Part shown: in pieces, positions 6,900 through 40,711 of the stretch
How positions within the stretch are numbered: the first letter of the stretch is position 1
Layout: every line of letters begins with the position of its first letter
Program-made: the position numbers and the translations under genes
From: Geobacter sp.
Lineage (GTDB): Bacteria > Myxococcota_A > UBA9160 > JADFDR01
Direction: 5' to 3'
Length of the DNA stretch: 40,711 nt
Assembly: GCA_018262735.1 (NCBI GenBank)
Contig: JADFDR010000002.1
Span: 1-40,711 of the forward strand
Notes under the pieces: generated by a model
What the model was told of the DNA's origin: nothing
The model's input: the letters and a program-made list of their open reading frames with translations, nothing else
Database searches by the model: none

Positions 6900-7727
6900 T
6901 CAATAACCCTTGAACTCGGCTTTGCGCTTCTCGAAGAAAGCCGTGGTGCCTTCTTTGAAGTCGCGCGTCGCCGCCGTCATCGTCGAAGCAACGGCTTCGT
7001 AGTCGAGCATCTCGTCGAGTGTCGAGTTGAGCGACTTGTAAACGAAGCGGCGCGCCATGTCGATCGCCACGCTCGGGCCTGCGGCGAGTTTCGACGCATA
7101 CGCAAACGCGGCCTCGAAGGCCTTGCCTTCCGGCACGAGTTCGTCGATCAGGCCAATTGCCTTGGCTTCTTCGGCGTTAAACATTTTTGCGGTTTCGACC
7201 ATCATCAGCGCGTTCGAAAGACCGACGATGCGCGGCAAGAAGTAGGTCACGCCGCAGTCCGGGCTGATGCCAACTTTGGTAAAGATCGCCGACATCTTGG
7301 CGCTGGAATCGGCAAAGCGTCGATCACACGCAAGTGCGTAAGCGAGGCCCGCGCCCACCGCCGGGCCGTGGATGGCGGCGATCACCGGCTTTTCGACGGC
7401 CACGATTTGGCGCGTCACGTCGACGAAGGGGCCGCCCGGGGTTTTTCGCTGCGAGCGCGGCATGCGGCGCGACGGATCCGACGCACCCGGCAGCGGTCGA
7501 TCGCCTTCGCCGCTCAAAAACTCGACATCTCCGCCCGAGCAAAAGGAACGCCCTGCACCGGTCAACACAATCGTGCGTACATCGTCGTTGTAGTGCAACT
7601 CATGAAAGAGCTTTGCCGTCGCTTCGGCAAGATCCCAGTTCACCGCGTTCAGGCGGTCCGGGCGATTCAAGGTGACGATGCCGACACCGTCGCGAAGCTC
7701 GAAAAGAACAAGATCATTTTCTGCCAT
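6900..7727 (-). CDS. enoyl-CoA hydratase/isomerase (crotonase) family protein
   Basis: Crotonase motifs GIVTLNRPDRLNAV, FCSGGDV and AAIHGPAVGAGLAYALACD. Start set to ATG 7727 with AAGGAG 7 nt upstream; the track start 7772 adds a Lys-rich extension. Confidence 0.88.
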   Translation of the reverse strand: MAENDLVLFELRDGVGIVTLNRPDRLNAVNWDLAEATAKLFHELHYNDDVRTIVLTGAGRSFCSGGDVEFLSGEGDRPLPGASDPSRRMPRSQRKTPGGPFVDVTRQIVAVEKPVIAAIHGPAVGAGLAYALACDRRFADSSAKMSAIFTKVGISPDCGVTYFLPRIVGLSNALMMVETAKMFNAEEAKAIGLIDELVPEGKAFEAAFAYASKLAAGPSVAIDMARRFVYKSLNSTLDEMLDYEAVASTMTAATRDFKEGTTAFFEKRKAEFKGY

Positions 7728-7806
7728 GGGATTGCTCCTTTTTCTTTTTTGTTTCGTGGATTCAGACTTCATGTCGCTATTTGGTGTCGCAGATCAAAGC
7801 AGCGCA

Positions 7807-8868
7807 CTAAGCGTGCAGCGCCTTCACCGTGGCGCGCACCCAGTCTTCTTGGGCGCGCAACCCCGGCGGCAAATCGAGCAGCACCGTCGAAAACAAACCC
7901 GCGCAACGCTGCTTCACCAGCGAAACGAGATCGTCGGCAGTTCCGATGAGCGCCCATTCTTCAAGCATTTCGTCGGTGATCACCTCCGGCATCTCGGTCC
8001 ATTTTCCTTGGCGCGAAAGATCGTGCAGCTTATGCCCGGCTTCTTGCCAACCGTGGAATTCGAGTACCGCGTGATACGTGCGTGTCGAGGCATAGAAGGC
8101 AATGTGCTGCGCGAGTTCGCGCTTGGCGCGCGCAACGTCTTCGGCCCTTTCGCCGATCGCGAGAAACGGCGCACCGATCAAGTCGATGTCGGCGAGCTTG
8201 CGGCCCGCCTTCTTCGCACCTTCCTCGATCGCCGGGAGTACAACATCTTGTGTATAGCGGAAGGTCGCGATCGGATGCAATCGCAAGCCGTCGCAAAGCT
8301 CGCCCGAAAGTTTCGCCATGTAGGGATTGACGGCGGCGATGCAAAGCTCCGGCGGTGCGTAGTCGATCGGCCCGGGATTGAAAAACGGCGGCAGCATCGT
8401 GAACGAATAATGCGTGCCTTCGAAATACGTCGGCTTCTTGGGATTTGCGAACGACGCGAAGATCGCCTTCATGCAGAGCAGATACTCGCGCATTCGCGGG
8501 CCCGGCGGCCCCGACCATGTCGCGACATAGCGCCGCTCAACGTGTCCCTTCACTTGCGTGCCAAGCCCCAAACGAAAGCGGCCCTTCGAGAGTTGCTGCA
8601 AGTCCCAAGCAACTTGCGCGGTGACCATGGGGCTGCGCGGGAAAGCAATCGCGACGTTCGTGCCAAGCTTCACGCGCTCGGTGTGTTCGGCCGCAATCAC
8701 GAGCGGCAAGAACGGATCATGCCCCGCTTCGGGCGACGTCACACCGTCGAAACCAAGCTCTTCGAGCTTGCGCGCAGCGTCGGCAATTTTACCGATCGTC
8801 ATCGAGGCTTGACCTTGGCCAGCGTATTGCTGCGTCTCCGGACCGAGCATCACGGTTTCGATTTTCAC
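7807..8868 (-). CDS. LLM-class (luciferase-like) F420/flavin-dependent oxidoreductase
   Basis: Luciferase-like TIM-barrel look: ELGFDGVTSPEAGHDPF, KLGTNVAIAFPRSP and GRFRLGLGTQVKGH. GAGGAG abuts ATG 8874 (zero spacing) but sits 6 nt from GTG 8868, so 8868 is preferred. 8874 remains possible. Confidence 0.85.
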   Translation of the reverse strand: MKIETVMLGPETQQYAGQGQASMTIGKIADAARKLEELGFDGVTSPEAGHDPFLPLVIAAEHTERVKLGTNVAIAFPRSPMVTAQVAWDLQQLSKGRFRLGLGTQVKGHVERRYVATWSGPPGPRMREYLLCMKAIFASFANPKKPTYFEGTHYSFTMLPPFFNPGPIDYAPPELCIAAVNPYMAKLSGELCDGLRLHPIATFRYTQDVVLPAIEEGAKKAGRKLADIDLIGAPFLAIGERAEDVARAKRELAQHIAFYASTRTYHAVLEFHGWQEAGHKLHDLSRQGKWTEMPEVITDEMLEEWALIGTADDLVSLVKQRCAGLFSTVLLDLPPGLRAQEDWVRATVKALHA

Positions 8869-9294: not shown

Positions 9295-10572
9295 ATGGTC
9301 GAGCCAACTTGGGGGAAGATCTTGAGCAAGCAGAGCAACGAAGCACTCGCGGGCATCCGCGTCATCGAACTCGGGCAAATGATTTCGGCGCCGTATTGCG
9401 CGAAGCTTTTCGCCGACTTTGGTGCGGACGTCATCAAAGTCGAAGCCCCGGCAAGCACGGGGCTTCCCGGCGATCTCTCGCGCCATTGGGGGCCATTTCC
9501 GAGCGACGAGCCACACCTCGAAAAAAGCGGAACCTTTTTCTTTCTTAACACCAATAAGCGTAGTGTCACGCTCGATGTCGCGCAGGAGAAAGGCCGTGCG
9601 ATTTTGAAGAAACTGCTCGCGCAGGCCGATGTCTTGATCGAAAACTGCCATCCCGGGCAGATGCGCGAGTGGGGACTCGACTTTGCAGCGCTACAGAAAA
9701 TCAATCCACGTCTCGTGATGATCTCGATTACGCCCTTTGGTCAGACTGGACCGTACTGCGACTGGAAAGGTTACGACTTAAACGCCTATCACCTCTCCGG
9801 CGCAAGCCATCGCTATTGCGGACGCCCCGGCGAAGCACCGCTCGAACACGGGACCTTTGCTGCAGATTTCTTTGGTGCCATTTCCGCAGCGACCTGGGGA
9901 CTCGCAGCTGTGTATGGTCGAAGTCTCGTCGCGCAAAACGCGGAAGGCGGCGGACAACAGCTCGACGTCTCGTGTGCCGAAGCGATCGCCGCCGCGTTCG
10001 TCGGTGGACAAAACATCGGCGGCTATGCGCAAGACGGAAAATTCGAACATCGCACCGGCGTAGGAATGCCGCTTGGTGCGCCGGCCACGATCGTTCCCTG
10101 CAAGGATGGCTATGTGTGGATGCTCGCGCTCGAACCGGGCCAGTGGAACGGTCTTGCGAAAGTGATGGGCAATCCCGAGTGGATGCAGCTCGATCTCTTC
10201 CAAGACATGTATGCGCGCGCGCAAAACGCCGACGCGATCTATCCGATGTTGCAAGAATGGACGATGGAGCACTCGAAGCAAGAAATCATGGATTTGTGTC
10301 AGGCCAACGGATGCCCTGTGACGGCGGTCTACAACGTCGCCGAGGCGGCAGCCCAAGAACATCTCAAAGTGCGCGAGTATCTGGTCCATCTCGCACACCC
10401 TCATCTCGGCACGATTCCGACTCTCGGCGCGCCGTTCAAACTACCCAAGAGCCCGGGCGGTCCCAAGCGACCCGCACCGCTGCTTGGCGAACATAACCAA
10501 GAAGTGTATGGCGAAATGCTTAGCCAAGATGCCGCTCTTCTGACCACCTGGAAGCGCGACGGAATCATCTAA
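9295..10572 (+). CDS. family III (CaiB/BaiF) CoA-transferase, Asp-containing subunit (A1)
   Basis: LAGIRVIELGQMISAPYCAKLFADFGADVIKVE, and FGQTGPYCDWKGYDLNAY carrying the conserved family III Asp. Start is uncertain: ATG 9295, ATG 9262 or TTG 9322. The track start 9196 looks too long compared with the paralog. Confidence 0.85.
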   Translation: MVEPTWGKILSKQSNEALAGIRVIELGQMISAPYCAKLFADFGADVIKVEAPASTGLPGDLSRHWGPFPSDEPHLEKSGTFFFLNTNKRSVTLDVAQEKGRAILKKLLAQADVLIENCHPGQMREWGLDFAALQKINPRLVMISITPFGQTGPYCDWKGYDLNAYHLSGASHRYCGRPGEAPLEHGTFAADFFGAISAATWGLAAVYGRSLVAQNAEGGGQQLDVSCAEAIAAAFVGGQNIGGYAQDGKFEHRTGVGMPLGAPATIVPCKDGYVWMLALEPGQWNGLAKVMGNPEWMQLDLFQDMYARAQNADAIYPMLQEWTMEHSKQEIMDLCQANGCPVTAVYNVAEAAAQEHLKVREYLVHLAHPHLGTIPTLGAPFKLPKSPGGPKRPAPLLGEHNQEVYGEMLSQDAALLTTWKRDGII

Positions 10573-10599
10573 CGCATTTTTGAGTTATCGGAGATCGAC

Positions 10600-11835
10600 A
10601 TGGCCAACAAGCTGCCGCTACAAAAAATTCGAGTTGCGAACTTTGGTTGGGTTTGGGCCGGGCCCGTCGTCGGACAAACGCTCGGCTTCCTCGGCGCCGA
10701 GGTCTACAAGATCGAGTCGCGCGCGCGCATCGATCTCACCCGCAACTTGCCACCGTTTGCCGAGGGTGTGCGCGACCCGAACCGCAGCCTCTCGAATCAC
10801 GCGTGCTGGGCGGGCAACGGCAGCATCACGCTCAATCTCAAGAAAGACGAAGCCAAACAACTCGCGCTCGACTTCATCGCGAAGTGCGACGTCGTGATCG
10901 AAAACTTCGGCCCGGGTGTGATGAAACAACTTGGTTTCGGCTACGAAGAACTCTGCAAGGTGAAGCCCGACATCGTGATGTTCTCGATGCCGGCGGCGGG
11001 GTTGTACGGTCCGCTCAAAGACATTCGCACGTACGGGCTGAGTCTCACGAGCACGACCGGACTCGACAGTCTCACGGGTTATCTCGACGGTGCACCGATT
11101 CCCGTCGAAAACGCCTACTCGGATCCCTACAACGGAATTCTCGGCGCGTTTGCAATCGTGGCGGCGCTCCACTATCGCGATCGCAGCGGCGAAGGCCAGC
11201 ACATCGATTACTCGCAACAAGAAGCGATCATGCAGATGGTCGGGCCGGCGTACATGGATTATGTGCTCAACGGACGCGTCGCGGGGCCGATCGAAAATCG
11301 CCATCCGCGCGCTATGGCGTCACCGCACGGTGTATTCCCGTGCGCAGGCGACGATCGCTGGATCAGCATCGCCGTGCTCACCGACGAAGAATGGCAAGGC
11401 TTGCAGTGCGCCGTGAAGAAGGCAGCGGGAAGCGACGCAAGCTGGATCGATGCGCCGGAATTTGCGACGCACGAAGCGCGACTTGCGCATATTGCTTCGC
11501 TGCACGAAAAACTCGCCATGTGGACCAAGCAGTTTGGCGACACCGAACTCGCCGCGCGCTTGCAAGCTGCGGGTGTAGCCGCTGCGCCGGTTTTGAACGT
11601 CGCCGACTTGCTCAACAATCCGCACTACAAGGCGCGCAAGACGTTTCTCGAAGTGACACATCCGCTTGGCTTTGAAGAAACGATCTACGGCGCGTACGTG
11701 AAGATGAGCGAAAGCGAACCGGCGGTGCGTCCCGGGCCGTCGATGGGTCAAGACAACGAACACGTGTTCAAAAATCTGCTTGGGCTACCCGAGGCGCGCT
11801 ACGCAAAGCTCGTCGAAGAGCAGATCATTTACTGA
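10600..11835 (+). CDS. family III CoA-transferase-like subunit lacking the canonical Asp (B1)
   Basis: IRVANFGWVWAGPVVGQTLGFLGAEVYKIE. The loop aligned to the catalytic Asp reads GLYGPLKDIRTYGLSL, with Gly in place of Asp. GGAGA lies 5-6 nt upstream of ATG 10600, which is 27 nt after A1. Confidence 0.85.
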   Translation: MANKLPLQKIRVANFGWVWAGPVVGQTLGFLGAEVYKIESRARIDLTRNLPPFAEGVRDPNRSLSNHACWAGNGSITLNLKKDEAKQLALDFIAKCDVVIENFGPGVMKQLGFGYEELCKVKPDIVMFSMPAAGLYGPLKDIRTYGLSLTSTTGLDSLTGYLDGAPIPVENAYSDPYNGILGAFAIVAALHYRDRSGEGQHIDYSQQEAIMQMVGPAYMDYVLNGRVAGPIENRHPRAMASPHGVFPCAGDDRWISIAVLTDEEWQGLQCAVKKAAGSDASWIDAPEFATHEARLAHIASLHEKLAMWTKQFGDTELAARLQAAGVAAAPVLNVADLLNNPHYKARKTFLEVTHPLGFEETIYGAYVKMSESEPAVRPGPSMGQDNEHVFKNLLGLPEARYAKLVEEQIIY

Positions 11836-12173: not shown

Positions 12174-12668
12174 ATGAAGAAGAAAGAATCCGGCTCGATC
12201 GACATCGAAACCTTTCGCGCGACGAACATTGGCCAGCCGCTGATGGAAGTCGCGAAAGATTTTCAACGCCGCGCGCTCGCGAAGTTTTACGAGCGTGGCC
12301 ACGACGAGTTGCAACCGTCGCACCAAGCGGTGCTCGCCTACTTGCATGCTTCGGGCACACGGCTCACGGAACTCGCGGAACTCGCCGGAATGAGCAAGCA
12401 GGCCATGGGGCAGCTCGTCGATGAAATCGAGCGCTTGGGTTACGTCGAGCGCGTGCCCGACCCGAGCGACGGACGGGCCAAGATCGTACGCTTTACGGTG
12501 TCGGGCAAGAAGTTGATTCGCGACGGCACCAAGATCGCGAGCGAAATCCAAGAGCAATATACGGCGCTGATCGGGGTGAAACGCTTCGAGCAATTGCGCG
12601 AAATCCTCGACGAGCTGCGCAGCAAAGCCAAAATGCTGCCGATCGGCGATGAGGTTGGAGAGAAATAA
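12174..12668 (+). CDS. MarR-family transcriptional regulator
   Basis: Winged-helix segment LTELAELAGMSKQAMGQLVDEIERLGYVERVPDPSDGRAKIVRFT. Start set to ATG 12174; the track ORF begins at 12042. The stop overlaps the next gene as TAATG. Confidence 0.85.
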   Translation: MKKKESGSIDIETFRATNIGQPLMEVAKDFQRRALAKFYERGHDELQPSHQAVLAYLHASGTRLTELAELAGMSKQAMGQLVDEIERLGYVERVPDPSDGRAKIVRFTVSGKKLIRDGTKIASEIQEQYTALIGVKRFEQLREILDELRSKAKMLPIGDEVGEK

Positions 12669-13828
12669 TGTTTGCACTGCAGGGCTTGCGCATCCTCGAT
12701 CTTTCCCGGCACGCACCCGGGCCGTACTGCAGCATGTTGATGGCGGATCTTGGCGCCGACGTAATCGTGGTCGAGGCGCCTACGACGCATAAAAGCGTTG
12801 GTTCGGCGATGGGCATCAGCGATCGCGACATAGCGTTCAATCCCGTCGGACGCGGCAAGCGTTCGATCGCGCTCAATCTCAAAGATCCGGCCGCGCGCGA
12901 AGTCTGCTTGCAGCTTGCAAAAAACGCCGATGTCGTGCTCGAAGGCTTTCGACCTGGCGTCGCGACACGACTCGGTGTCGACTACGACGCCTTGCGCGCG
13001 ATGAAACCCGATTTGATCTATTGCTCGATCAGCGGCTACGGCCAAACCGGCCCCTACGCGCCGCTCGTCGGACACGATCTCAACTACATCAGCATCGGCG
13101 GTGCGCTCGGCATGATCGGAACGCCCGGCGGTGCGCCGACGATTCCGATGAACGCGATCGCAGATTTTGCGGGCGGCGGTCTCTTCGCAGCCTTCGCGGT
13201 GCTCGCGGCCGTGGTGCATCACAAGAACACCGGCGAAGGTCAATACATCGACATGGCAATGAGCGACGGCGTGCTGTCGCTCATCGGGCTGCTCGCCGGC
13301 GAAACGCTCGCCAAAGGCCGCCCCCCACGACCGGGCCAGCATTACTTGAATGGTGCCTTGCCTTGCTATCACGTCTACGAAACTTCCGACGGAAAATGGC
13401 TCAGCGTCGGCTGCATGGAGCCTTGGTTTTGGGCGCGTCTTTGCAAGCAACTCGGTTGCGAAGAGTTCAGCAACGAACAATTCAACACCGAAAAGTTTCC
13501 CGAGATTTTTGCGTTCTTGCGCGCGCGCTTCCAAGAAAAAACGCGCGACGAATGGTTTGCACAACTCAAGGACGATGAAATCTGCGCGACGCCCGTCTAC
13601 GAACTCGACGAAGCGCTGCGCGACCCGCATCTGATCGCACGCAAGATGGTCGTCGAAGTCGAAGATGCGAAGTACGGAAAAATTCCGCAGGTCGGCATCG
13701 CACCGAAATTCTCGAAGACGCCCGGCAAAGTGCGAGGCACCGCTCCGCGCGTCGGTGAACACAGCGAGGAGATCTTGCGCGAGCTGGGTTACTCGGCCGA
13801 CGCGATCGCAAAACTCACGGGAAAGTAA
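12668..13828 (+). CDS. family III CoA-transferase / alpha-methylacyl-CoA racemase-like protein
   Basis: LRILDLSRHAPGPYCSMLMADLGADVIVVE, and ISGYGQTGPYAPLVGHDLNYISIGG (the GHD-NY motif typical of racemase-type members). 386 aa. Confidence 0.85.
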   Translation: MFALQGLRILDLSRHAPGPYCSMLMADLGADVIVVEAPTTHKSVGSAMGISDRDIAFNPVGRGKRSIALNLKDPAAREVCLQLAKNADVVLEGFRPGVATRLGVDYDALRAMKPDLIYCSISGYGQTGPYAPLVGHDLNYISIGGALGMIGTPGGAPTIPMNAIADFAGGGLFAAFAVLAAVVHHKNTGEGQYIDMAMSDGVLSLIGLLAGETLAKGRPPRPGQHYLNGALPCYHVYETSDGKWLSVGCMEPWFWARLCKQLGCEEFSNEQFNTEKFPEIFAFLRARFQEKTRDEWFAQLKDDEICATPVYELDEALRDPHLIARKMVVEVEDAKYGKIPQVGIAPKFSKTPGKVRGTAPRVGEHSEEILRELGYSADAIAKLTGK

Positions 13829-16012: not shown

Positions 16013-17113
16013 TTATTCGTCTTCGCCGCAGATCTGATCGAAGACTTCGTAAGCCTCTTCGACCATGTCGAGCACGATCTGACGCGCGGGTTTCATTGAC
16101 GTCACGAAATCCACACCTTGGCCAGCGGCTTCGGTCATGAAATCCGGCATGTTCCAGTCGATCGCCGATTGCTTCACATCTGCGAAGAGCAGCAATTGAT
16201 ACGGAGCCGGAGCCGGTCGCGGCGCATCCGGGCGCTCCCACTCTTCATGCCACTTACACTTTAATGTGCGCATCGTGAAGCCCGAGATGCAGTTCGAATA
16301 CGCCGTGTCGGTGGCCTTCGCCGCAAGCAATTTCTCTTTGATGATCATGTCGACGTCGGACTCGCGCGACGGAAGCCAAACCGTTCCCGTCCACACACCT
16401 TGCGCGCCGAGCGCGATCGCGCCGGCCAAGTGACGCCCGGTGGTGACACCGCCGCCCGCGATCACCGGCGTATCGCCCGCAATCGCCACGACTTGCGGCA
16501 CGATCGAAAACGTACCGATCGGACCGGTGTGACCCGCGGCATCGTTGCCTTGCGCGATCACCGCATCGACGCCCGCTTCAATTTCGCGTTGCGCTTGGCG
16601 CGGTTTTCCGACGAGACCCCAAACCTTCATGCCTCGTGCGTGCGCGGCGTCGAGCACGAACGCCGGATTTCCAAGACCCGAGGCAAGCACGGGAACATTG
16701 TTCTCGAGTACGACTTCGAGTTGGCGGCGCGGCGTTTCTTTGTTTACCCAACCGAGGTCATAGAGTTCGGGAGTTTTCTTCGGCGCGGGAATGTTGTGGC
16801 GCTTCTTCATCTCTTCCACAAATTTGCGTTGGGCTTCGGGAATCTGCGCCTTCAAATCGTCGATCGAACCGACGGCCGGCACCGAGGCCGGAAAAACCAA
16901 GTCGATGCCGAACGGCTTCGAACCCACCTTCTCGCGCAACCACTTGATGTCCGCCTCGATTTCTTCGGGCGAATGTTGCGTTTCACCGAGCACTGCAAAA
17001 CCACCGGCGTTGATCACCGCAGCAGCGACGTCTTTGCAATGCGTAAAAGCAATGATGGGATATTCGATACCGAGCTCTTGCACGAGCCGTGTCTTCAGCG
17101 GGTCTTTGGCCAC
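16013..17113 (-). CDS. nitronate monooxygenase / 2-nitropropane dioxygenase (FabK-like) family flavoenzyme
   Basis: LGIEYPIIAFTHCKD and GVDAVIAQGNDAAGHTGPIGTFSIVPQVV. Start set to GTG 17113 with AAGGAG 6 nt upstream; the track start is 17203. Confidence 0.85.
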   Translation of the reverse strand: MAKDPLKTRLVQELGIEYPIIAFTHCKDVAAAVINAGGFAVLGETQHSPEEIEADIKWLREKVGSKPFGIDLVFPASVPAVGSIDDLKAQIPEAQRKFVEEMKKRHNIPAPKKTPELYDLGWVNKETPRRQLEVVLENNVPVLASGLGNPAFVLDAAHARGMKVWGLVGKPRQAQREIEAGVDAVIAQGNDAAGHTGPIGTFSIVPQVVAIAGDTPVIAGGGVTTGRHLAGAIALGAQGVWTGTVWLPSRESDVDMIIKEKLLAAKATDTAYSNCISGFTMRTLKCKWHEEWERPDAPRPAPAPYQLLLFADVKQSAIDWNMPDFMTEAAGQGVDFVTSMKPARQIVLDMVEEAYEVFDQICGEDE

Positions 17114-17275
17114 GTTCTTCTCCTTCGGAAATTTGCAATTTGCGGATTGGATTGGGTCGCGAAGCGACGCCCCGCGACTCGATGTCCGCGCGAACTTTGC
17201 CATCGGCGCGCCGGGGCGGCAAGCGTTGGCAGGTCAAAACGCGGGCGAGCGAATCATCGCATCGAATCCAAATCG

Positions 17276-17627: not shown

Positions 17628-18944
17628 ATGGACGGCGCACTCACCGGAATCCGCGTAATCGAACTTGGCGAAGGCATTTCCGCTGCCTTTGCCGCGAAAC
17701 TTTTTGCGGACTACGACGCGGAAGTCATCAAAGTCGAATTGCCGCGCTCGCCTTGCGCAAGCGATCCGACGGAAACACACGATGCGGGCAACGTCGCGCA
17801 ACCCGCCGACGTTTCGCGACTGGGCGACGTCACGCGAAGCTGGGGACCGTTTCCAGGCGACGTGCCCGATCCCGAAAAAAGCGGCGCCTTCTTTTTCTTG
17901 AACACGAACAAGCGCGGTCTCGCGCTCGACTTCACTTGCGACAAAGGGCGCGAACTTTTGCTTCGCCTCATCGCCGAAGCCGACGTGCTCATTGAAAACT
18001 TTTCGCCACGACAAATGCGCGAATGGAAGCTCGACTGGGCGACGCTCGAAAAAATCAATCCAAAACTCGTGATGATTTCCATTACGCCGTTCGGTCAGAC
18101 CGGCCCGTACGCCGACTGGAAAGGCTACGACCTGAATGCGTTTCATCTTTCGGCGACGGGCACGCGCTACTGCGGTGTGCCCGACCAAGCGCCGCTCGAG
18201 CACGGCACCTTTTCCGCCGAATTTTTCGGGGCCTACTGTGCCGTAACCTGGGGACTGGCGGCGGTGATCGGCCGCGACTTGGTGGCGCAAGATGACGCAG
18301 AGAATGAAAAAAGTGGGGGTGGCCAACACATCGACGTGTCATGCGCCGAAACCGTGGCCGCACTCTTCGTCGGAGCGCAAAACATCGGGGGCTATGCCCA
18401 GGACGGAAAATCAGGAACACGAACGGGTGTCGGAATGCCGCTCGCCGCGCCTGCCACGATCATTCCCTGCCAAGACGGCTACGTGTGGATGATGGCGCTT
18501 GAAACCGGGCAGTGGCACGGGCTCGTGCGCGCGATGGGCAATCCCGATTGGGCGCAGCTCGATCTCTTCGACGATATGTTCGAACGCGCTCAAAACTCCG
18601 ACATGATTTATGCCTTCCTCTACGAGTGGGCCGCGGCGCACACCAAGCAGGAGATCATGGATTTGTGTCAGGCGAACGGTTGCCCAACCACGGCGGTGTT
18701 TACGGTCGCCGAGGCCGGCGAACACCCGCACCTGCGCGAGCGCAACTACCTCCGCGAGATCGCCCACGCCGCACTCGGCACCGTGCGCACCTTCGGCGCG
18801 CCAGTGCATCTCACGGCGTGCCCCGGCGGAGCGACGGCACCGGCGCCGCTCTTCGGCGAACACAACGCTGAAATTTTGGGTGTGCGGCTCGGCTTGTCGG
18901 TTGCAGAACAGTCTACACTTCGAAGCGTAGGAGTGATCGCATGA
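17628..18944 (+). CDS. family III CoA-transferase, Asp-containing subunit (A2, paralog of A1)
   Basis: LTGIRVIELGEGISAAFAAKLFADYDAEVIKVE and FGQTGPYADWKGYDLNAF. Start set to ATG 17628 (GAGGAG 4 nt upstream); the track ORF from 17310 adds a non-coding-looking extension. By eye roughly two-thirds identical to A1. Confidence 0.87.
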   Translation: MDGALTGIRVIELGEGISAAFAAKLFADYDAEVIKVELPRSPCASDPTETHDAGNVAQPADVSRLGDVTRSWGPFPGDVPDPEKSGAFFFLNTNKRGLALDFTCDKGRELLLRLIAEADVLIENFSPRQMREWKLDWATLEKINPKLVMISITPFGQTGPYADWKGYDLNAFHLSATGTRYCGVPDQAPLEHGTFSAEFFGAYCAVTWGLAAVIGRDLVAQDDAENEKSGGGQHIDVSCAETVAALFVGAQNIGGYAQDGKSGTRTGVGMPLAAPATIIPCQDGYVWMMALETGQWHGLVRAMGNPDWAQLDLFDDMFERAQNSDMIYAFLYEWAAAHTKQEIMDLCQANGCPTTAVFTVAEAGEHPHLRERNYLREIAHAALGTVRTFGAPVHLTACPGGATAPAPLFGEHNAEILGVRLGLSVAEQSTLRSVGVIA

Positions 18945-20161
18945 GCAAAGCTCTTCCCTTGCAAGGCCTGCGCGTGGCGAATTTCGGTTGGGGCTGGCTC
19001 GGACCGGTCGCCGGACAAACGCTCGGCTTTCTCGGCGCCGAGGTCTACAAGATCGAGTCGCACGCGCGCGTCGACATCAATCGCACCTTGCCGCCGTTTG
19101 CCGAAGGCAAGCGTGACTTCGATCGAAGTTTGCAAAACCACGCCGGCTGGGCCGGCAACGGCAGCGTGACGATCAATCTCAAAAAAACGGCCGGCCAAGC
19201 ACTCGCACGCGAACTCGTCGCGAAGTGCGACGTGGTGCTCGAAAACTTCGGCCCCGGCGTGATGGACAAGCTCGGCCTTGGCTACTCGGAATTGTGTAAG
19301 GTGCGGCCGGATGTGATCTTGGTTTCGATGCCCGCTGCAGGACTCACGGGGCCACTGCGCCACGTGCGCACCTACGGCATGAGTCTGAGCAGCATCACGG
19401 GGCTCGATAGTCTCACCGGCTATGTCGATGGCCCACCGATACCGATGGAAAACGCATACGCCGATCCGCTCGGTGGCATCATCGGTGCGTTCGCGGCGCT
19501 GCTCGCATTGCGCTTTCGCAAGCGAACCGGCAAAGGTCAACTCGTCGATCTCTCGCAACAAGAAGGCATCTTGCAAATGGTCGGCCCGGCCTGGATGGAT
19601 TACGCCTTCAACGGTCGCGTAGCCAAGCCGATCGGCAATCGCCATCCGCTCTCCGTCGGTGCGCCACACGGCGTGTTCCCGTGCGTGGGCGACGATCGCT
19701 GGATCAGCATCGCAGTGCTCTGCGAAGCGGAATGGCATGGTTTGGTGGCGGCAATGAAGTCGCCCGCGTGGGCCACGGCGGTGGAATTTTCGTCGTCACA
19801 AAAACGTGTCGCAAACATCGAAGCGCTTCATCAAAAAATCGCAGAGTGGACGCGCGGGTTCGACAACCAAGAATTGGCAGCGTTACTCCAGACGCACGGT
19901 GTCGCCGCCGCGCCGGTGCTTGCAGTGGCCGACTTGCTCTCCAATCCGCAACTCCAAGCGCGCAACACGTTCATGGAAGTCACACATCCACTCGGCTTTC
20001 GCGAAACGATCTACGGCGCTTATGTGAAGACGAGCCGCACCGAGCCGCGCATCACGCCCGGCCCGGCGATGGGCTGCGACAACGAGCACGTCTTTCGTTC
20101 GCTTCTGGGCCGTTCGGAAGTGGATTACCAACAGCTCGTGCACGACGAAGTGATCTTTTGA
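18941..20161 (+). CDS. family III CoA-transferase-like subunit lacking the canonical Asp (B2, paralog of B1)
   Basis: LRVANFGWGWLGPVAGQTLGFLGAEVYKIE. The loop reads GLTGPLRHVRTYGMSL, with no Asp. ATGA overlap with A2, and AGGAG 7 nt upstream. Confidence 0.87.
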   Translation: MSKALPLQGLRVANFGWGWLGPVAGQTLGFLGAEVYKIESHARVDINRTLPPFAEGKRDFDRSLQNHAGWAGNGSVTINLKKTAGQALARELVAKCDVVLENFGPGVMDKLGLGYSELCKVRPDVILVSMPAAGLTGPLRHVRTYGMSLSSITGLDSLTGYVDGPPIPMENAYADPLGGIIGAFAALLALRFRKRTGKGQLVDLSQQEGILQMVGPAWMDYAFNGRVAKPIGNRHPLSVGAPHGVFPCVGDDRWISIAVLCEAEWHGLVAAMKSPAWATAVEFSSSQKRVANIEALHQKIAEWTRGFDNQELAALLQTHGVAAAPVLAVADLLSNPQLQARNTFMEVTHPLGFRETIYGAYVKTSRTEPRITPGPAMGCDNEHVFRSLLGRSEVDYQQLVHDEVIF

Positions 20162-34295: not shown

Positions 34296-35192
34296 TTATC
34301 GTTTCGTTTCTTTGGAGTTCGCTTTCTCGAATTCTTCGAGCAACGTGCGACGCATTTCGCGCTCGCGGTTCCGAATCTCCCAGAAACGCGGCGGACGTTT
34401 TTCCATGAATGCCATTCCGCCTTCCTTGCCCTCCGGCATATCGAACCAATCCGGATAAAACTGACTCGAGATCGTTCCCATCTCCTGGTAGCCATCCATT
34501 TCTTGATCGAAACTCGCTTTGAGAATTTCAAGGCAACCCGGACTCACGCGCAAAAGTTCTTCGCACCACTGATCCACTTCAGTGTCGAGTCGATCGAGTG
34601 GAACCACGCGATTCACGAGTCCCATCTGTTCGGCTTCCTGAGCAGTGTACCGTCGGCAAAGCATCCACATTTCGCGCGCTTTCTTGGCGCCGACGACCTT
34701 GGTGAGATAGGGCACGAAAAAACCATCGGCCGGACTCGACACGCGCGGCCCGGCTTGGCCGAAGATTGCGTTGTCGGCGGCGATCGTAAAATCGCAGCAA
34801 TAAGCCATGTGATTGTGTCCCGCCAAACAATATCCCTGCACGACTGCCATCACCGGTTTGCGCGAAAGACGAATCAATCGATTGTGCGGGTAGCGGTTGT
34901 AAAACGCTTCGCGCAAACCCCAGCGCTCCCACTCGACATCCCCCCCTGCACCGAAATGTTTTCCCACACCTGCAACCAAGATGACACCGATCGATGTATC
35001 ATGGTTTGCGTCATAGAACGCGCGAAACATTTCCTCCACCGTCGAAAGTGTCATCGTATTGAACTTGTTTGGCTTGTTGATCGAAACGCGCGCAATGCCG
35101 CCTTCGAGTTCCGAATGATATTTTTTTTCGTACAGGATTTGCTCGAAAACGAGACCGTCCCCTTGAACTTGTGCCCATTCTGACCAACCCAT
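34296..35192 (-). CDS. MenB/BadI-like crotonase (naphthoate-synthase / 2-ketocyclohexanecarboxyl-CoA-hydrolase subfamily)
   Basis: GQAGPRVSSPADGFFVPYLTKVVGAKKAREMWMLCRRYTAQEAEQMGLVNRVVP closely follows the MenB-type signature. Also FGAGGDV. Start set to ATG 35192 (AGGAGG 9 nt upstream). Confidence 0.8.
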   Translation of the reverse strand: MGWSEWAQVQGDGLVFEQILYEKKYHSELEGGIARVSINKPNKFNTMTLSTVEEMFRAFYDANHDTSIGVILVAGVGKHFGAGGDVEWERWGLREAFYNRYPHNRLIRLSRKPVMAVVQGYCLAGHNHMAYCCDFTIAADNAIFGQAGPRVSSPADGFFVPYLTKVVGAKKAREMWMLCRRYTAQEAEQMGLVNRVVPLDRLDTEVDQWCEELLRVSPGCLEILKASFDQEMDGYQEMGTISSQFYPDWFDMPEGKEGGMAFMEKRPPRFWEIRNREREMRRTLLEEFEKANSKETKR

Positions 35193-35367
35193 GCTGTCGA
35201 TCCTCCTGACGACTTGGCGCGACCAAGTCACGCCAACCTCAAAGCCTCTCGTTCTGTCCGTTTCTTGATCTTTCCAAATTCGCAAACCATTGGAACGCTT
35301 TTGCGCGACCGCAAATTTTTCTTGCTGCGGCGCAATACAACACAACTTTGTCTACACTTATTTGCGT

Positions 35368-36141
35368 TTAGCGACCTTTGAAAGCAGGCGGGCGGCGCTC
35401 TGCGAACGCCGCCGGACCTTCCTTCGCATCCTCCGACGAAAACACGCGTGCGGCAAGTGCTTTTTCAAGCACGAAGCCCGGCTCGTTCAACATCGAGCGC
35501 ACTGCAATCTCTTTGGCCGTGCGCACCGCGAGCGGGCCATTCTTGCAAATTTTCTCGGCCATCTGCATGGCTTCGTTGAATACCTGATCCGCCGGCACCA
35601 CCTTGTTCACGAGTCCGACGTCATAAGCGCGCTGCGCGCTAATCGGTTCACCGGTGAGCAAAAGCTCCATCGCCACGGCCCACGGAATTTGCCGCGGTAC
35701 ACGAATATGTGACCCCCCTGCCGGAATCAACCCCCAGCGCACTTCGCCAAGACTAAACATCACGTGCTCGCCTGCGATGCGAATATCCGTGCCTGCAAGC
35801 ATCTCCATGCCACCCGCAATGCAGGCTCCGTTGACGGCAGCGATGATCGGCTTGAACACGTCCGAGAACTGGCGTTTCGTGTGATCGGGATAGCCGAGAT
35901 CGTCACCGGCGGTGAGCAGCGGAATCGCTTCTTTGAGATCCATGCCCGCCGAAAACGCTTTGTCGCCGGTGCCGGTCAAAATCGCCACCCAGAGATCGGG
36001 ATCCGCGTTGAAATCGGCAAACGCCGCATCGAGGCCAAGCAACATCGCTTTGGTAAGCGAATTCATCGCCTTCGGACGATCAATGCGCATCACGGCGATA
36101 TGACCTTTTTTCTCGTAAACGATCTCGGACGGAATCTCCAC
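35368..36141 (-). CDS. enoyl-CoA hydratase/isomerase family protein (E2, paralog of E1)
   Basis: HIAVMRIDRPKAMNSL, FSAGMDL, AAVNGACIAGGMEMLAGTDIRIAG and GEVRWGLIPAGGSHIRVPR. The track start 36186 is a TTG. GTG 36141 with GGAGA 6 nt upstream is preferred. Confidence 0.85.
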   Translation of the reverse strand: MEIPSEIVYEKKGHIAVMRIDRPKAMNSLTKAMLLGLDAAFADFNADPDLWVAILTGTGDKAFSAGMDLKEAIPLLTAGDDLGYPDHTKRQFSDVFKPIIAAVNGACIAGGMEMLAGTDIRIAGEHVMFSLGEVRWGLIPAGGSHIRVPRQIPWAVAMELLLTGEPISAQRAYDVGLVNKVVPADQVFNEAMQMAEKICKNGPLAVRTAKEIAVRSMLNEPGFVLEKALAARVFSSEDAKEGPAAFAERRPPAFKGR

Positions 36142-36196
36142 GATACATCTCCACTTTTTGGTGTAATTGATCTTGCGTTCGTTCAACCCACCGCGT

Positions 36197-36622
36197 TCAG
36201 CGAACGCAGCGTCGAAATTTCGGCAAGCTGATTTCCGGCGTCACTTCGTCGAAAACCACTTCCACCGGCATCCCAATTTTCAATTCTTCGGGAGTGCAAC
36301 CTTGCACTTCGCTGAGCAAACGCACGCCTTCTTCGAGTTCGACGATCACGGGTGCAAGCGGTACGGAATCGCGAAACGCGGGATGCAGCGCGCGGTTCAC
36401 GACGGTCCATGTGAATACTTCGCCGCGCCCGCTCGACTTCGCCCATTCCCATTCCCAGGAACCACACTCGGCACACATTTCACGCGGCATATGCCGCCAC
36501 GCGCCACAGGATTTACAACGCTGAAAACGCAATTCACCTTGTTTGCAGAACGCGTAGAAATCTTTGCTGAAGCCTTCGAGTACCGGAAGCGGCTTCGTGT
36601 ATCCGGTTGCAGATTCGCTCAT
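36197..36622 (-). CDS. DUF35 Zn-ribbon / OB-fold protein (D2, paralog of D1)
   Basis: RCKSCGAWRHMPREMCAECGS, then GRGEVFTWTVVNRALHPAF. 141 aa. Confidence 0.88.
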   Translation of the reverse strand: MSESATGYTKPLPVLEGFSKDFYAFCKQGELRFQRCKSCGAWRHMPREMCAECGSWEWEWAKSSGRGEVFTWTVVNRALHPAFRDSVPLAPVIVELEEGVRLLSEVQGCTPEELKIGMPVEVVFDEVTPEISLPKFRRCVR

Positions 36623-36702
36623 TTCGTTCTCGCTTTCTTCAATCGTTCATTCTCGATTGGGGGATTGCACTCGATCTTTTGCTTGCGTTGGAAAAGGTTT
36701 CT

Positions 36703-37863
36703 TCAGCGACGCAAAATGGCGATGCTGCCGTCGCCAAAATCGCCCCAGCCCGTCACAACACCGATCTCGGCGTCCTTCACTTGACGCTCGCCCGCAACAC
36801 CGCGGAGTTGTCGAACGGCTTCGACGATGTGATTCATGCCGAGCACATGCGCTTCGGAAAGAAGTCCACCGTGCGTGTTCACCGGGAGTTCGCCGCCGAG
36901 TTCGATGCGTCCGCCTTCAACGAATGCACCGCCTTCGCCGCGTTTGCAAAAACCGACTTCTTCGATTTGCTGCAAGACCTCGAAGGTGAAGCAATCGTAG
37001 ATCTGCGCGAAGTCGACATCTTTCGGTGTCACTCCGGCCCTCGCAAAGGCTTCCGGCGCCGCGATCGTGAGACCGGTGCGAAAGATGTCTTTGCGATTCG
37101 TGAACTCGTCGGCGGGATACGGCTGCCCTGCGGCCACGCTCATGATGTAGGCCGGCTTTTTCTTGAGATCACGGGCGCGCTCGACGCTGGTCACCACCAA
37201 CGCCGCAGCACCGTCGGTTTCGAGACAGCAATCGAACAAGCGATACGGATCCGCGAGCATCGGCGAGGCGAGATAGTCGTCCATAGTCATGGCGCGGCCG
37301 CGCATCACCGCGTTCGGATTGAGCTGCGCGTGCTTGCGCATCGCGAGCGCGATCGCACCGAGTTGCTCGGCCTTCGTGCCATACTCATGCATGTGTCGGC
37401 GAGCCATCAGCGAATACCACTGCGGCGGCGCGGTAAGTCCATACGGCAAGTAGTAGTCGCGCGCGATCGTACCGCCGGGCAGCGACGAAACGTCTTGCGA
37501 AACCGTCTGGCGCGCCCGCGCACTCGAATAGCCATTCCAGCCCGCCGGGATCAAGACATAATCCGCAGCACCCGAAGTCACCGCGAGCGCTGCACTTTCA
37601 AGCGACGCCACCGGCGAAGCGCCTCCCATATGGATCGTCACCGCAAAGCGAAGATTGACGCAGCCAAGATTGGCTGCGAAAGCTTCGGCGGTACCGAGTG
37701 TGGGAAACGGCATGATACCGTCAATCTGCGAATTTTTGAGTCCTGCATCGGCGATCGCTCGGGTTGCGGCTTGCAATTGCAAACCGAGCAACGTCATCCC
37801 CGAACCTTCGCCGCGCAAATACTTCGTCTCGCCAATACCAACGATGCAAGCTTGATCCTTCAC
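36703..37863 (-). CDS. thiolase-superfamily (SCP2-type) protein lacking the nucleophilic Cys (T2, paralog of T1)
   Basis: ACIVGIGETKYLRG. HMGGASPVASL sits at the nucleophile position. The C-terminal ~90 aa are almost identical in protein sequence to T1. Start set to GTG 37863 (GGGGAG 5 nt upstream); the track start is 37947. Confidence 0.85.
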   Translation of the reverse strand: MKDQACIVGIGETKYLRGEGSGMTLLGLQLQAATRAIADAGLKNSQIDGIMPFPTLGTAEAFAANLGCVNLRFAVTIHMGGASPVASLESAALAVTSGAADYVLIPAGWNGYSSARARQTVSQDVSSLPGGTIARDYYLPYGLTAPPQWYSLMARRHMHEYGTKAEQLGAIALAMRKHAQLNPNAVMRGRAMTMDDYLASPMLADPYRLFDCCLETDGAAALVVTSVERARDLKKKPAYIMSVAAGQPYPADEFTNRKDIFRTGLTIAAPEAFARAGVTPKDVDFAQIYDCFTFEVLQQIEEVGFCKRGEGGAFVEGGRIELGGELPVNTHGGLLSEAHVLGMNHIVEAVRQLRGVAGERQVKDAEIGVVTGWGDFGDGSIAILRR

Positions 37864-38024: not shown

Positions 38025-39017
38025 TTACTTGCAACGCTTTTTAGTGTCGATTTTCGCAAGCTTCGCAAGGTTGAGACCGAGCAATCCAGCGCGAACCTCG
38101 TCGGTGATCTCCGCATAGCCCCACTTTTCTTGAAGTTCCTCGGGCATTTGCAGATTGCGTACCCAATCGACCACGCGCGGCATGTCGTCGAACGGCAAGT
38201 CGAGACCCATCACGATGCGATGCGAGTCGACCCACTGCAGCGCGGTACCGATCGCGTGATAACCACGGTACGGCGAGCGCTCGTACCAACCGATGATGCC
38301 CGAAAGACTCAAGTAGAGATTCATGTGCTTGCCGGCGAGTCCAATCAACTCTTCGGTATTCGGCCAACCCATGTGATAGGCGATGATCTTGAGTTCCGGG
38401 AAATCGAGAAGAACACGATCGAGTGTCATCGGCATCGAGTGTGCGCTCGGTTGCGGTACGACGTAGGACTGCCCCGTGTGCACCGTGAGTGCGATGTCGA
38501 GTTCGCAGGCCTTCTCGTAGAACGGCCACAGCGCGCGATCGTCGAGCGCGCCAAGATCTTCCGGCGCATACATCTTACAAAGTTTTGCGTTGCGCTCTTT
38601 GACGAGATACTCGAGCTCCCAGAGCGCATGTTCCATGCCACGGCGCAAAATCGGCCCGACGTTGCACTCAAGATAGATGCGATCCGGATACGGCTCGATC
38701 TCTTTCAGAATAAAACCGTTCGTCGAAAGACAGGTCGAATTGCCCGTAACGTCCATCATCGGTTCGCGAAGCGCGAAGGTCACGTCGACGCCGGACTTGT
38801 CCATATACGCAATCAACTCTTTTGCAATCGGATGGGGCCACGACGCATCAGGATCCGTGAGATTGCGTCCTGCCCACGCCTTCATCACGCCGTTCACGCT
38901 GCCCCACCAACGCTGGACATTCGGAAAGTACGCGATCTCTGCAAGTGTATCCGGGTTCATCAAATGGCATTCCGATAACGCGACGAAGTAATCTTTTCCG
39001 GCTTTCTTGGCTGTCAT
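38025..39017 (-). CDS. amidohydrolase-2 family protein (metal-dependent hydrolase / decarboxylase / hydratase fold)
   Basis: TVHTG, IIAYHMGWP and MGLDLPF match the later metal-ligand motifs of PF04909-type enzymes. The N-terminal motif reads LSECHLM rather than a clear HxH. Start set to ATG 39017 (AAGGAG 6 nt upstream). Confidence 0.75.
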   Translation of the reverse strand: MTAKKAGKDYFVALSECHLMNPDTLAEIAYFPNVQRWWGSVNGVMKAWAGRNLTDPDASWPHPIAKELIAYMDKSGVDVTFALREPMMDVTGNSTCLSTNGFILKEIEPYPDRIYLECNVGPILRRGMEHALWELEYLVKERNAKLCKMYAPEDLGALDDRALWPFYEKACELDIALTVHTGQSYVVPQPSAHSMPMTLDRVLLDFPELKIIAYHMGWPNTEELIGLAGKHMNLYLSLSGIIGWYERSPYRGYHAIGTALQWVDSHRIVMGLDLPFDDMPRVVDWVRNLQMPEELQEKWGYAEITDEVRAGLLGLNLAKLAKIDTKKRCK

Positions 39018-39038
39018 GACTTTCTCCTTGGTTGAATC

Positions 39039-39062
39039 TTGCGTTGCAGTTTGCGTTGCAAA
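39039..39062 (-). repeat. tandem 12-mer TTGCGTTGCA(GT/AA) x2, directly upstream of the amidohydrolase RBS
   Basis: 39039-39050 and 39051-39062 share the 10-mer TTGCGTTGCA. They are followed by two perfect 10-bp palindromes, CGAGGCCTCG (39065-39074) and GACTCGAGTC (39076-39085). Confidence 0.7.
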
Positions 39063-39108
39063 TTCGAGGCCTCGCGACTCGAGTCGAGCAAGCGACACGA
39101 TGCGAGCA

Positions 39109-40711
39109 TCAGGCGTTCGCGCGCTCCGCCTTGGCCTTTTGAATCCACTTCCAGACACGATTCGGTGTCGCAGGAGTTTCGTTTGCAATGACACCAATAG
39201 GTGTCAGCGCATCTGTAATGGCATTCATGATTGCAGCCGGCGTGGTGTGCATCGCGCCTTCACCGCAGCCCTTGGCGCCAAGCGGCGCCACCGGCGAAGG
39301 CGTGCAAAGCGCAGCCTTCTCCGTCATCGGCACCTCGTTGATCGTCGGAATCAAATAATCCATAAACGTCGACACGAGTGGCTGTGCTTCCGCGTCATAG
39401 ACATACTCCTCGTACAACGCCGCACCCACGCCCTGGGCGACACCGCCTTGGATCATGCCTTCGACGTTCGATGGATTGAGCCGCACGCCGCAGTCGTCGG
39501 CGATGTAATACTTCAAGATCTCGACCTTGCCCGTCTCGGGATCGACTTCAACTTGCACAATATGACAGGCATTGGCGGCAGTGAGATAACTCCGACCACG
39601 CCCTTGCTCGTCGACCGGATTGCGACCGGCCGCAGTCCAGACGTACGTCGCTTCGGTGTTCGGCTCGATGCCCGGCGGCAAAAGATCGCTGCGCGCAAGC
39701 ATCACGCCGGCCACTTGCACAAGCGGCATCTCGGCGCCTGGTACTCCTTTGATCCGGAACATTCCATCGTGTAGTTCGATGTGATCCGCTTCGGTTTGCA
39801 TGAGATGCGCCACCACTTTCGCCATGCGCTGCGCGAGCGTTTGCGACGCACCCAACAACGCACCCGTGAGCGCAACGCCAAGCCGGCTGCCACCCGGACC
39901 AAAGTGCGGCGGCGCCGAAAGCGTGTCGAGTTGCACGACTTGCACGGCCTTCATGTCGACGCCGAAATAATCTGCGAGCACTTGCGCCGCGAGCGTGTAC
40001 TGACCTTGGCCTTCGAGCGCAAACCCGACGCGCGCCGTGATGTTGCCGAGGATGTCGATGTGTACGGTGACCCCTTCCGGCACACCGATGCTATGCACAC
40101 CCACCGTCGCATACGCGTTCCAATCAAAGACACCGGGCTCGATCGCGTTCACGACGGAAATCCCAAGATAGCGGCCTTGCTTGCGCGCCTCGGCTTGCTC
40201 CTTACGCAACTTCGTGTATTCCGACATTTCGAGCACTTTGTCGAGCGCAGCCTCGTAGTTGCCGCTGTCGTACTCGTTGCCACTCGGAATCGTGTAGGGG
40301 AACTGCTCGGGCTGGATGTAGTTCTTGCGGCGAATCTCCGCCGGATCGAGGCCGAGACTGCGCGCCGCGATATCGACCATTTGCTCGAGGACAAAGTAAT
40401 GTGGCGGAGGTCCCATTCCGCGATAAGGACTGGCCGGAAGTTTGTTCGTCATCACCAAGGTGAGGTCGTACTGCGCGGCTTGAATCGTGTAGCAACCCGT
40501 GAACGCCGCAAGCGGTTTGCCCGCCGACACGGCGCCAAAGCCTTCGGCCGTCGCACCGAGATCATCGACGAGCTTCACTTTGAGTCCTGTGAGTTTGCCG
40601 TCACGCGTGACGGCAAGTGACGCTTTATAGTGTCGGTCCCAGGCTTGACTCGAACCCGAGCCAAGATATTCCATGCGATCTTCGATCCACTTCACGGGGC
40701 GCCCGCCAGTC
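39109..40711 (-). CDS. molybdenum hydroxylase (xanthine dehydrogenase / CoxL-like) large subunit, C-terminal ~530 aa; the 5' end lies beyond the right edge
   Basis: The frame is open to the window edge (...TGGRPVKWIEDRMEY...). Typical family segments: PYRGMGPP, GGSRLG and PLGAKGCGEGA. The M at 40695 in the track is an internal GTG. Confidence 0.88.
   Translation of the reverse strand, partial: TGGRPVKWIEDRMEYLGSGSSQAWDRHYKASLAVTRDGKLTGLKVKLVDDLGATAEGFGAVSAGKPLAAFTGCYTIQAAQYDLTLVMTNKLPASPYRGMGPPPHYFVLEQMVDIAARSLGLDPAEIRRKNYIQPEQFPYTIPSGNEYDSGNYEAALDKVLEMSEYTKLRKEQAEARKQGRYLGISVVNAIEPGVFDWNAYATVGVHSIGVPEGVTVHIDILGNITARVGFALEGQGQYTLAAQVLADYFGVDMKAVQVVQLDTLSAPPHFGPGGSRLGVALTGALLGASQTLAQRMAKVVAHLMQTEADHIELHDGMFRIKGVPGAEMPLVQVAGVMLARSDLLPPGIEPNTEATYVWTAAGRNPVDEQGRGRSYLTAANACHIVQVEVDPETGKVEILKYYIADDCGVRLNPSNVEGMIQGGVAQGVGAALYEEYVYDAEAQPLVSTFMDYLIPTINEVPMTEKAALCTPSPVAPLGAKGCGEGAMHTTPAAIMNAITDALTPIGVIANETPATPNRVWKWIQKAKAERANA

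Follow-up and report, generated by a model that had tools for sequence, protein, structure and literature searches.

The 40,711-nucleotide window analysed here, contig JADFDR010000002.1 of a Geobacter sp. assembly (GCA_018262735.1; Myxococcota_A in GTDB), carries two adjacent genes, A1 and B1, that encode subunits of family III CoA-transferases. A1 and B1 probably make up a BbsEF-type enzyme in which A1 is BbsE-like and B1 is BbsF-like. This reading, which we consider likely, has the two subunits forming a heteromer, fills the nucleophile position of both with a carboxylate, and assigns to the pair the activation of a seco-acid. An earlier reading of the DNA letters, referred to here as the sequence-only reading, had described the same tandem pair but took B1 for a subunit devoid of the catalytic aspartate. 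The genes and the spacer between them are as follows.

9295..10572, + strand: A1, putative BbsE-type family III CoA-transferase subunit; 425 amino acids from the ATG at 9295; intact open reading frame
10573..10599, + strand: A1-B1 spacer of 27 nucleotides, with a GGAG Shine-Dalgarno sequence 8 nucleotides before the B1 ATG
10600..11835, + strand: B1, putative BbsF-type family III CoA-transferase subunit; 411 amino acids; intact open reading frame

Family III membership was assessed as a match to the PF02515 profile at its curated cut-off of 23.3 bits. Both A1 (E = 1.6e-101, 340.5 bits) and B1 (E = 5.5e-87, 292.7 bits) match the whole model (1–366 of 366), and they share 27% identity with each other. 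With both reading frames intact and full length against PF02515, the tandem family III pair described by the sequence-only reading is real, and its spacing of 27 nucleotides was confirmed exactly. The relatives of A1 are about 403–416 amino acids long, and their N-termini lie about 10 residues downstream of the ATG at 9295. Because these N-termini agree with a start at the TTG at 9322, which gives a 416-residue A1, and because GGGGGAAG precedes this TTG, the true start of A1 is probably TTG 9322 and the ATG at 9295 is too far upstream.

Nucleophile positions of A1 and B1

The nucleophile of CaiB is Asp169, a residue conserved in Frc, YfdW, FCOCT and Rv3272 (PMC9196870). The products of E. coli frc (yfdW), yfdE and caiB were aligned using MAFFT with the five family III proteins that the window encodes, which are A1, B1, their paralogues A2 and B2, and the racemase-type protein C1. 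A single column holds Frc D169, CaiB D169, YfdE D173, A1 D191, A2 E198, B1 D175, B2 D175 and C1 D166, and this column was unchanged after further sequences were added. Pairwise HMMER alignments concur. Residues 17–191 of A1 were matched to Frc 4–169, and B1 D175 was placed opposite residue 193 of the YfdE chain, which is D173. The positions concerned are these.

9775..9777, + strand: A1 D161, Asp of the GYD loop; aligns with Frc E140, CaiB N141 and YfdE D144
9865..9867, + strand: A1 D191, canonical nucleophile position in the motif FAADFFG; column of Frc D169, CaiB D169 and YfdE D173
11035..11037, + strand: B1 G146, Gly opposite A1 D161; chain B of PDB 9fn0 has G149 in this column
11122..11124, + strand: B1 D175, the nucleophile position by alignment, in the motif AYSDPYNG; the column also holds D178 of 9fn0 chain B

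The sequence-only reading had taken the Asp of the A1 GYD loop for the one used by family III enzymes and, on finding Gly opposite it, proposed that B1 is possibly non-catalytic. The motifs it quoted exist (GQTGPYCDWKGYDLN from A1 residue 149 and GLYGPLKDIRTYGLSL from B1 residue 134), and multiple alignments do place B1 G146 in the column of A1 D161. The loop Asp is the wrong residue, however, as it lies 30 residues upstream of A1 D191, the residue that aligns with the nucleophile, and B1 D175 fills the nucleophile column. With a carboxylate at both A1 D191 and B1 D175, neither A1 nor B1 therefore appears to be a dead partner.

Benzylsuccinate CoA-transferase (PDB 9fn0), the two-subunit enzyme BbsEF, offers a direct comparison. 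Its chain B is the top PDB match of B1 (E = 2.6e-52, vs 2e-14 for chain A). Chains A and B were rebuilt from the printed HMMER alignments and then aligned with the window proteins, with the following result for the two columns.

9fn0 chain A: loop column D142, nucleophile column Tyr171
9fn0 chain B: loop column G149, nucleophile column D178
A1: loop column D161, nucleophile column D191
A2: loop column D168, nucleophile column E198
B1 and B2: loop column G146, nucleophile column D175

Tyr171 of chain A is 37 residues from the upstream GP motif and 24 from the downstream GxGQ, exactly the spacing in B1, and its placement is therefore no alignment artefact. In 9fn0 it is thus the E-type chain that appears to be without the canonical Asp, the opposite of what had been proposed for A1 and B1. 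The sequence-only reading had named two findings that would count against a non-catalytic B1, an Asp or Glu of B1 in the active site after proper alignment and characterised partners with the same substitution, a known function and the same substrate context. The alignment supplies the first in B1 D175, and in 9fn0 chain B the same Gly (G149) accompanies the nucleophile D178. The key biochemical premise was wrong, and the non-catalytic partner is therefore refuted on the terms under which it was put forward.

The loop column itself does not seem to demand a side chain. It contains D127 of the racemase MCR, and in structures published in 2025 D127 reaches the thioester oxygen through its main-chain nitrogen and not through its side chain (PMC12682127). 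Glycine at this column retains the backbone NH. CaiB is catalytically competent with Asn141 here, which suggests that the side chain found at A1 D161 is not universally required. B1 G146 lies one residue past the conserved Tyr/His of the G-Y/H-D loop. Since MCR uses the backbone NH, active CaiB has Asn and the solved BbsF-type chain has Gly, Gly146 appears to be a lineage signature of F-type subunits and no catalytic loss.

A maximum-likelihood tree was constructed with IQ-TREE (LG+G4, 1000 ultrafast bootstraps), the other lineages being only Frc, YfdE, CaiB and the racemase type. All A-type proteins cluster with 9fn0 chain A (ultrafast bootstrap 100) and all B-type proteins with chain B (ultrafast bootstrap 99). 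Together with a gene order that places A upstream of B in 75/80 genomes, this bears out the proposal of a two-subunit, BbsEF-like arrangement made in the sequence-only reading.

Conservation and pairing of the two subunits

At E ≤ 1e-20, word-based searches of a 5.8-billion-protein collection scored 2,071 B1 relatives and 6,742 A1 relatives. The best 120 relatives of each subunit, 67–92% identical, were combined with both window paralogues for the metagenomic counts (n = 122). The nearest relatives come from Logan assemblies and are 92% identical to B1 and 87% to A1. JGI names the B-type relatives 'benzylsuccinate CoA-transferase BbsF subunit'. For the genomic counts, 80 B-type and 75 A-type proteins were taken from species-representative genomes.

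B-type proteins do not vary at either position. Gly is found at G146 in 122/122 metagenomic and 80/80 genomic relatives, and Asp at D175 in the same 122/122 and 80/80, so that the nucleophile position is invariant in 202 relatives. The loop Asp of A-type proteins (D161) is equally constant, at 122/122 and 75/75. Their nucleophile position is occupied by Asp in 118, Glu in 3 and Ala in 1 of the metagenomic set, and by Asp in 66 and Glu in 9 of the genomic set. Asp or Glu is therefore present in about 99% of A-types, the surroundings, HGTF(A/S)A(D/E)F(F/Y)G, are highly conserved, and Glu variants turn up at several distinct points of the tree. If one subunit type varies at the nucleophile position it appears to be the A or BbsE type, as seen in Tyr171 of 9fn0 chain A, in Glu of A2 and in Glu of 9/75 genomic A-types. 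Because the B Asp is invariant, the A position switches between Asp and Glu, and BbsE has Tyr, the B-centred site is probably the indispensable one.

These observations raise the question of whether only the B-centred site (D175) turns over, with A serving mainly to scaffold or to confer specificity and its own site being auxiliary or vestigial. We consider this unlikely. Tyr171, placed by alignment at the nucleophile column of 9fn0 chain A, is in its favour, as is the contrast between an A position that varies in both counts, with scattered Glu and Glu in A2, and a B position that never does. Retention of a carboxylate within so conserved a motif in nearly all A-types argues instead for a working site, and Glu could itself be the nucleophile. 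The D/E/Y variation of the E-type against the invariant Asp of the F-type poses a question for mutagenesis on half-site function among family III heteromers.

Pairing of the genes was examined in the 80 genome loci. In 75 of them B has, upstream on the same strand, an A-type gene of at least 45% identity, and in roughly 65 of these the two are separated by about 50 nucleotides or less, or overlap. Among the five exceptions, four have B no more than about 1.1 kb from a contig end, and the fifth has a fragmented A directly upstream. In that locus (L036, 6884–8725, from a Gammaproteobacteria metagenome-assembled genome, or MAG) only the C-terminal half of A, 73% identical, was detectable directly upstream of B, and the B reading frame reads through with an N-terminal extension, probably the result of a frameshift or an assembly error. 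The loci are labelled Myxococcota, Binatia, Thermodesulfobacteriota, Dehalococcoidia, Actinomycetes/Acidimicrobiales, Spirochaetales, Betaproteobacteria and Gammaproteobacteria.

Mean pairwise identity is 68% for A and 71% for B, indicating equal constraint. The A and B distance matrices correlate with r = 0.64, while the maximum in 1000 label shuffles was 0.13. The window holds a second pair, A2-B2, and one further family III gene.

17628..18944, + strand: A2, A1 paralogue (65.5% identity) with Glu at the nucleophile position
18219..18221, + strand: A2 E198 (GAA), nucleophile column
18941..20161, + strand: B2, B1 paralogue (65.5% identity) with G146 and D175; 4-nucleotide overlap with the A2 stop
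12668..13828, + strand: C1, alpha-methylacyl-CoA-racemase-type family III protein with H136/D137 and D166

A1-A2 and B1-B2 are both 65.5% identical, and this equal divergence indicates that the pair was duplicated as a unit. Pairing, equal constraint and correlated distances are indirect evidence, consistent with an obligate heteromer, and do not fit a degenerate partner. Since A and B adjoin in many phyla, evolve equally slowly and have correlated distances, a heteromer is likely, and A1 and B1 most likely form an interlocked one.

A pair of separate homodimeric CoA-transferases, acting on different substrates and merely co-transcribed, seems improbable. Most characterised family III enzymes (Frc, YfdE, CaiB and MCR) are indeed homodimers, and A1 and B1 each have a complete set of catalytic-looking residues. 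Independent enzymes are difficult to reconcile with an A-then-B order that is near-universal in Myxococcota, Binatia, Chloroflexota, Actinomycetota and Beta- and Gammaproteobacteria, often with overlapping stop and start codons. Nor do they account for the duplication of the pair as a unit within the window, or for the clustering of each subunit with the matching chain of a solved two-subunit enzyme.

Racemases and the intramolecular mesaconyl-CoA transferase share the family III fold. On this ground A1-B1 could act on a CoA-ester intermediate of the pathway either as a racemase or by shifting CoA within one molecule (Mct-like), and would then be no intermolecular transferase, but this is very improbable. 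A racemase-type paralogue is already present in the window as C1, whose top PDB matches are Far and MCR of M. tuberculosis (E = 1e-65 and 4e-64). The racemase His/Asp pair (H136, D166) was found in C1 only, not in A1 or B1, which have Tyr in place of the His before the D/G column (GYD and TYG vs GHD in C1). The mesaconyl-CoA isomerase model and PDB 8apq gave the weakest matches of all, and no other CoA-activating enzyme was found either in the window or in the orthologous loci of 21 kb. With the racemase His absent and the mesaconyl-CoA matches weakest, both the racemase and the intramolecular-transferase readings were rejected. Upstream of C1, in the region 12177–13828, the end of a MarR-family regulator gene overlaps the C1 start in the sequence TAATG.

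Least credible of all is the model in which B1 has lost its catalytic Asp and serves catalytic A1 as a structural or substrate-binding partner, as the Gly of B1/B2 where A1/A2 carry the Asp of the G-Y-D loop is outweighed by a loop Asp that aligns with Frc E140 and CaiB N141 and is not the nucleophile, by the invariance of D175, by a B that evolves as slowly as A or slower, and by a BbsF-type chain with the same Gly plus a nucleophile Asp. A pseudo-enzyme partner would have exemplified subunit specialisation, but the idea depends on a residue that was assigned wrongly.

Gene context and proposed role

The genes of the window that bear on the function of A1-B1, as the predicted BbsEF-type transferase, are listed below.

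6900..7772, - strand: enoyl-CoA hydratase; its orthologue (61–68% identity) follows A-B in Rhodocyclales steroid-degradation loci
16013..17203, - strand: NMO-family (PF03060) gene, a neighbour of A-B pairs
38025..39197, - strand: Amidohydrolase_2 protein (Pfam), candidate steroid ring-A hydrolase (SRAH-like); co-occurs with A-B pairs; pathway context
39109..40695, - strand: xanthine-oxidase-family Mo-binding subunit (Pfam), AtcA/1-TDH-like, cut by the window end; pathway context

At the right end of the window the amidohydrolase_2 gene adjoins the Mo subunit gene, whose product is 65–67% identical to the Mo subunit encoded about 2 kb downstream of A-B in the Azoarcus Aa7 and Aromatoleum loci. 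The window further encodes four to five crotonase-fold hydratases, two luciferase-like oxidoreductases, and two thiolase-fold proteins with DUF35 partners. No AMP-binding domain was found by Pfam in the scanned open reading frames of the window and no AMP-binding signature in all six of its frames, which corroborates the earlier statement that the window has no acyl-CoA ligase.

A-B pairs that are 68–70% identical occur in the cultured organisms Azoarcus sp. Aa7, Aromatoleum evansii KB740, A. toluclasticum, A. anaerobium, A. toluolicum and Pseudohalioglobus lutimaris, and also in Sterolibacterium MAGs. The gene order on the + strand in Aa7 and KB740 is acyl-CoA dehydrogenase, racemase-like, MaoC halves, acyl-CoA dehydrogenase, DUF2889, A, B, luciferase-like (LLM), enoyl-CoA hydratase and SnoaL. 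These are followed by the FAD, iron-sulfur and Mo subunits of a xanthine-oxidase-family Mo enzyme, a further family III protein and, on the opposite strand, an old yellow enzyme-like gene. A divergent set of electron-transfer flavoprotein, DUF35 and thiolase-fold genes adjoins the A-B operon, and no AMP-binding gene was found in 21 kb of these loci. In Sterolibacterium, A-B is followed by LLM, enoyl-CoA hydratase, a family I CoA-transferase gene (PF01144), DUF35, a thiolase-fold gene and NMO. IpdAB belong to PF01144. The Sterolibacterium NMO gene, beside the PF01144 gene, recalls IpdC of steroid C/D-ring degradation. A DUF2889 gene stands immediately upstream of A-B in Azoarcus Aa7, Aromatoleum evansii and Sterolibacterium (L087, L088 and L089; about 7940–8740), and no equivalent was noticed beside A1 or A2 in the window.

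Over the 80 A-B loci, at least one cluster partner was present in 55, and an SRAH-like or AtcA-like gene lay within 7 kb of A-B in 25. MAGs carrying the labels Myxococcota, Actinomycetes/Acidimicrobiales or delta proteobacteria include pairs beside both SRAH-like and AtcA-like genes. In those Binatia and Dehalococcoidia MAGs that were examined, the pairs lie beside an SRAH-like gene only; the Dehalococcoidia locus L078 has an SRAH-like gene and no AtcA-like gene within 7 kb. Such a distribution points to 2,3-seco-type ring cleavage in organisms well beyond the Proteobacteria. SRAH-like and AtcA-like genes, together with aldolase, DUF35 and hydratase genes and an A-B pair, were also noted as a set in the window (34296–40695, - strand), and comparable sets, apart from the AtcA-like gene where noted above, were seen at loci L026, L059, L078, L063 and L054, among MAGs with the labels Actinomycetes, Acidimicrobiales, Binatia, Myxococcota and, for L078, Dehalococcoidia. 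An NMO-family gene is divergent from or close to A-B in 30/80 loci (for example L001, L026, L078 and L088).

In recent work on anaerobic steroid degradation SRAH was found clustered with the Mo enzyme 1-TDH (AtcABC), and the authors judged the 2,3-seco pathway to be restricted to beta- and gammaproteobacteria (PMC11780191, 2025). Azoarcus Aa7, Aromatoleum evansii KB740, Sterolibacterium and P. lutimaris are counted there as degraders of steroids by the 2,3-seco route; anaerobic growth on testosterone was shown for A. evansii KB740, and P. lutimaris is a predicted degrader (PMC11780191). The same study leaves unassigned a CoA ligase or CoA transferase, an acyl-CoA dehydrogenase, an acetate-releasing hydrolase, an enoyl-CoA hydratase and an acetyl-CoA-releasing aldolase, and candidate genes for these steps sit in the SRAH/1-TDH clusters (PMC11780191). 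Our literature search found no family III pair assigned in anaerobic steroid degradation. The A-B pair would be the obvious transferase candidate for the CoA-activation step.

The most likely role of A1-B1 would be the ATP-independent CoA activation of a seco-acid that arises when a steroid or a related alicyclic ring is broken down independently of oxygen (2,3-seco type). By the mechanism established for Frc and CaiB, the Asp would attack the donor acyl-CoA, forming first a mixed anhydride and after it an aspartyl-CoA thioester. This thioester would next be displaced by the acceptor carboxylate, and CoA-S- would finally yield the product thioester. Succinyl-CoA, as used by BbsEF, and acetyl-CoA, a product of the pathway, are candidate donors. 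The CoA ester formed would feed the neighbouring acyl-CoA hydratases and aldolases. Residue positions, conservation, synteny, phylogeny and gene context are observed, and the physical heteromer, its substrate and its CoA donor are inferred.

A more specific version of this scheme is put forward tentatively. A1-B1 might activate the ring-A seco-acid DSAO and A2-B2 a later acid, such as a ring-B product. The enzyme would be an asymmetric heteromer in which the B Asp is essential and the Asp/Glu of A is second or regulatory. The pathway itself might extend far beyond the beta- and gammaproteobacteria, because A-B pairs adjoin SRAH-like, and in some of them AtcA-like, genes in MAGs of other groups.

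Several observations weigh against the assignment of A1-B1 as a heteromeric, seco-acid-activating transferase. Sterolibacterium extracts made DSA-CoA with ATP and CoA, and earlier work had this as a ligase-dependent step (PMC11780191); the substrate of the pair may thus be a later acid, for example a ring-B product, and not DSAO. A-B pairs are also found in loci that have no recognisable steroid-pathway neighbours, so the substrate range may be broader. The tree that groups A with chain A and B with chain B holds few reference families. Finally, an AlphaFold2 model of the B1 monomer, from a 20-sequence alignment, had a mean pLDDT of 59, with loop 132–177 below 50.

Taken as a whole, the A-B proteins are a very abundant, highly conserved and biochemically uncharacterised BbsEF-type subfamily associated with 2,3-seco-type degradation of steroid or alicyclic rings. 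In cultured anaerobic steroid-degrading denitrifiers the pair sits within ring-A degradation operons. It is a concrete and testable candidate for an unassigned step of the pathway.

Comparison with known family III enzymes

A1 and B1 share the predicted fold of the alpha-methylacyl-CoA racemases MCR and Far, but their scores against MCR are far lower (E about 1e-20 to 1e-23), and in place of the His126/Asp156 acid-base pair they have Tyr at the His column (A1 Y160 and B1 Y145). Frc/YfdW, YfdE and CaiB share with A1 and B1 a full-length PF02515 domain and a nucleophile Asp (D169/D173) that lies equally far from the GP loop and from the following helix in all of them. These enzymes are single-gene homodimers that act on small acids (formate/oxalate, acetate/oxalate and carnitine), whereas A and B are two diverged subunits, 27% identical in the case of A1 and B1, that are always co-encoded.

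The closest known system is BbsEF (9fn0). As in BbsEF, two paralogous family III subunits are encoded in tandem, the E-type followed by the F-type, and B1 and B2 carry the F-type signature of chain B, which is Gly at the Frc E140 column plus the nucleophile Asp. Identity to 9fn0 is only about 30%, however, and the Asp-less feature of its chain A (Tyr171) was not found in the window, where A1 retains Asp and A2 has Glu. The genetic surroundings differ as well. There is no bss/bbs context, as neither a glycyl-radical enzyme nor bbsCD-type genes are among the neighbours, and A1-B1 lies instead in a steroid/alicyclic 2,3-seco-type cluster with a Mo hydroxylase, amidohydrolase_2, aldolases, a racemase, LLM and NMO. 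On these grounds the substrate of A1-B1 is almost certainly not benzylsuccinate.

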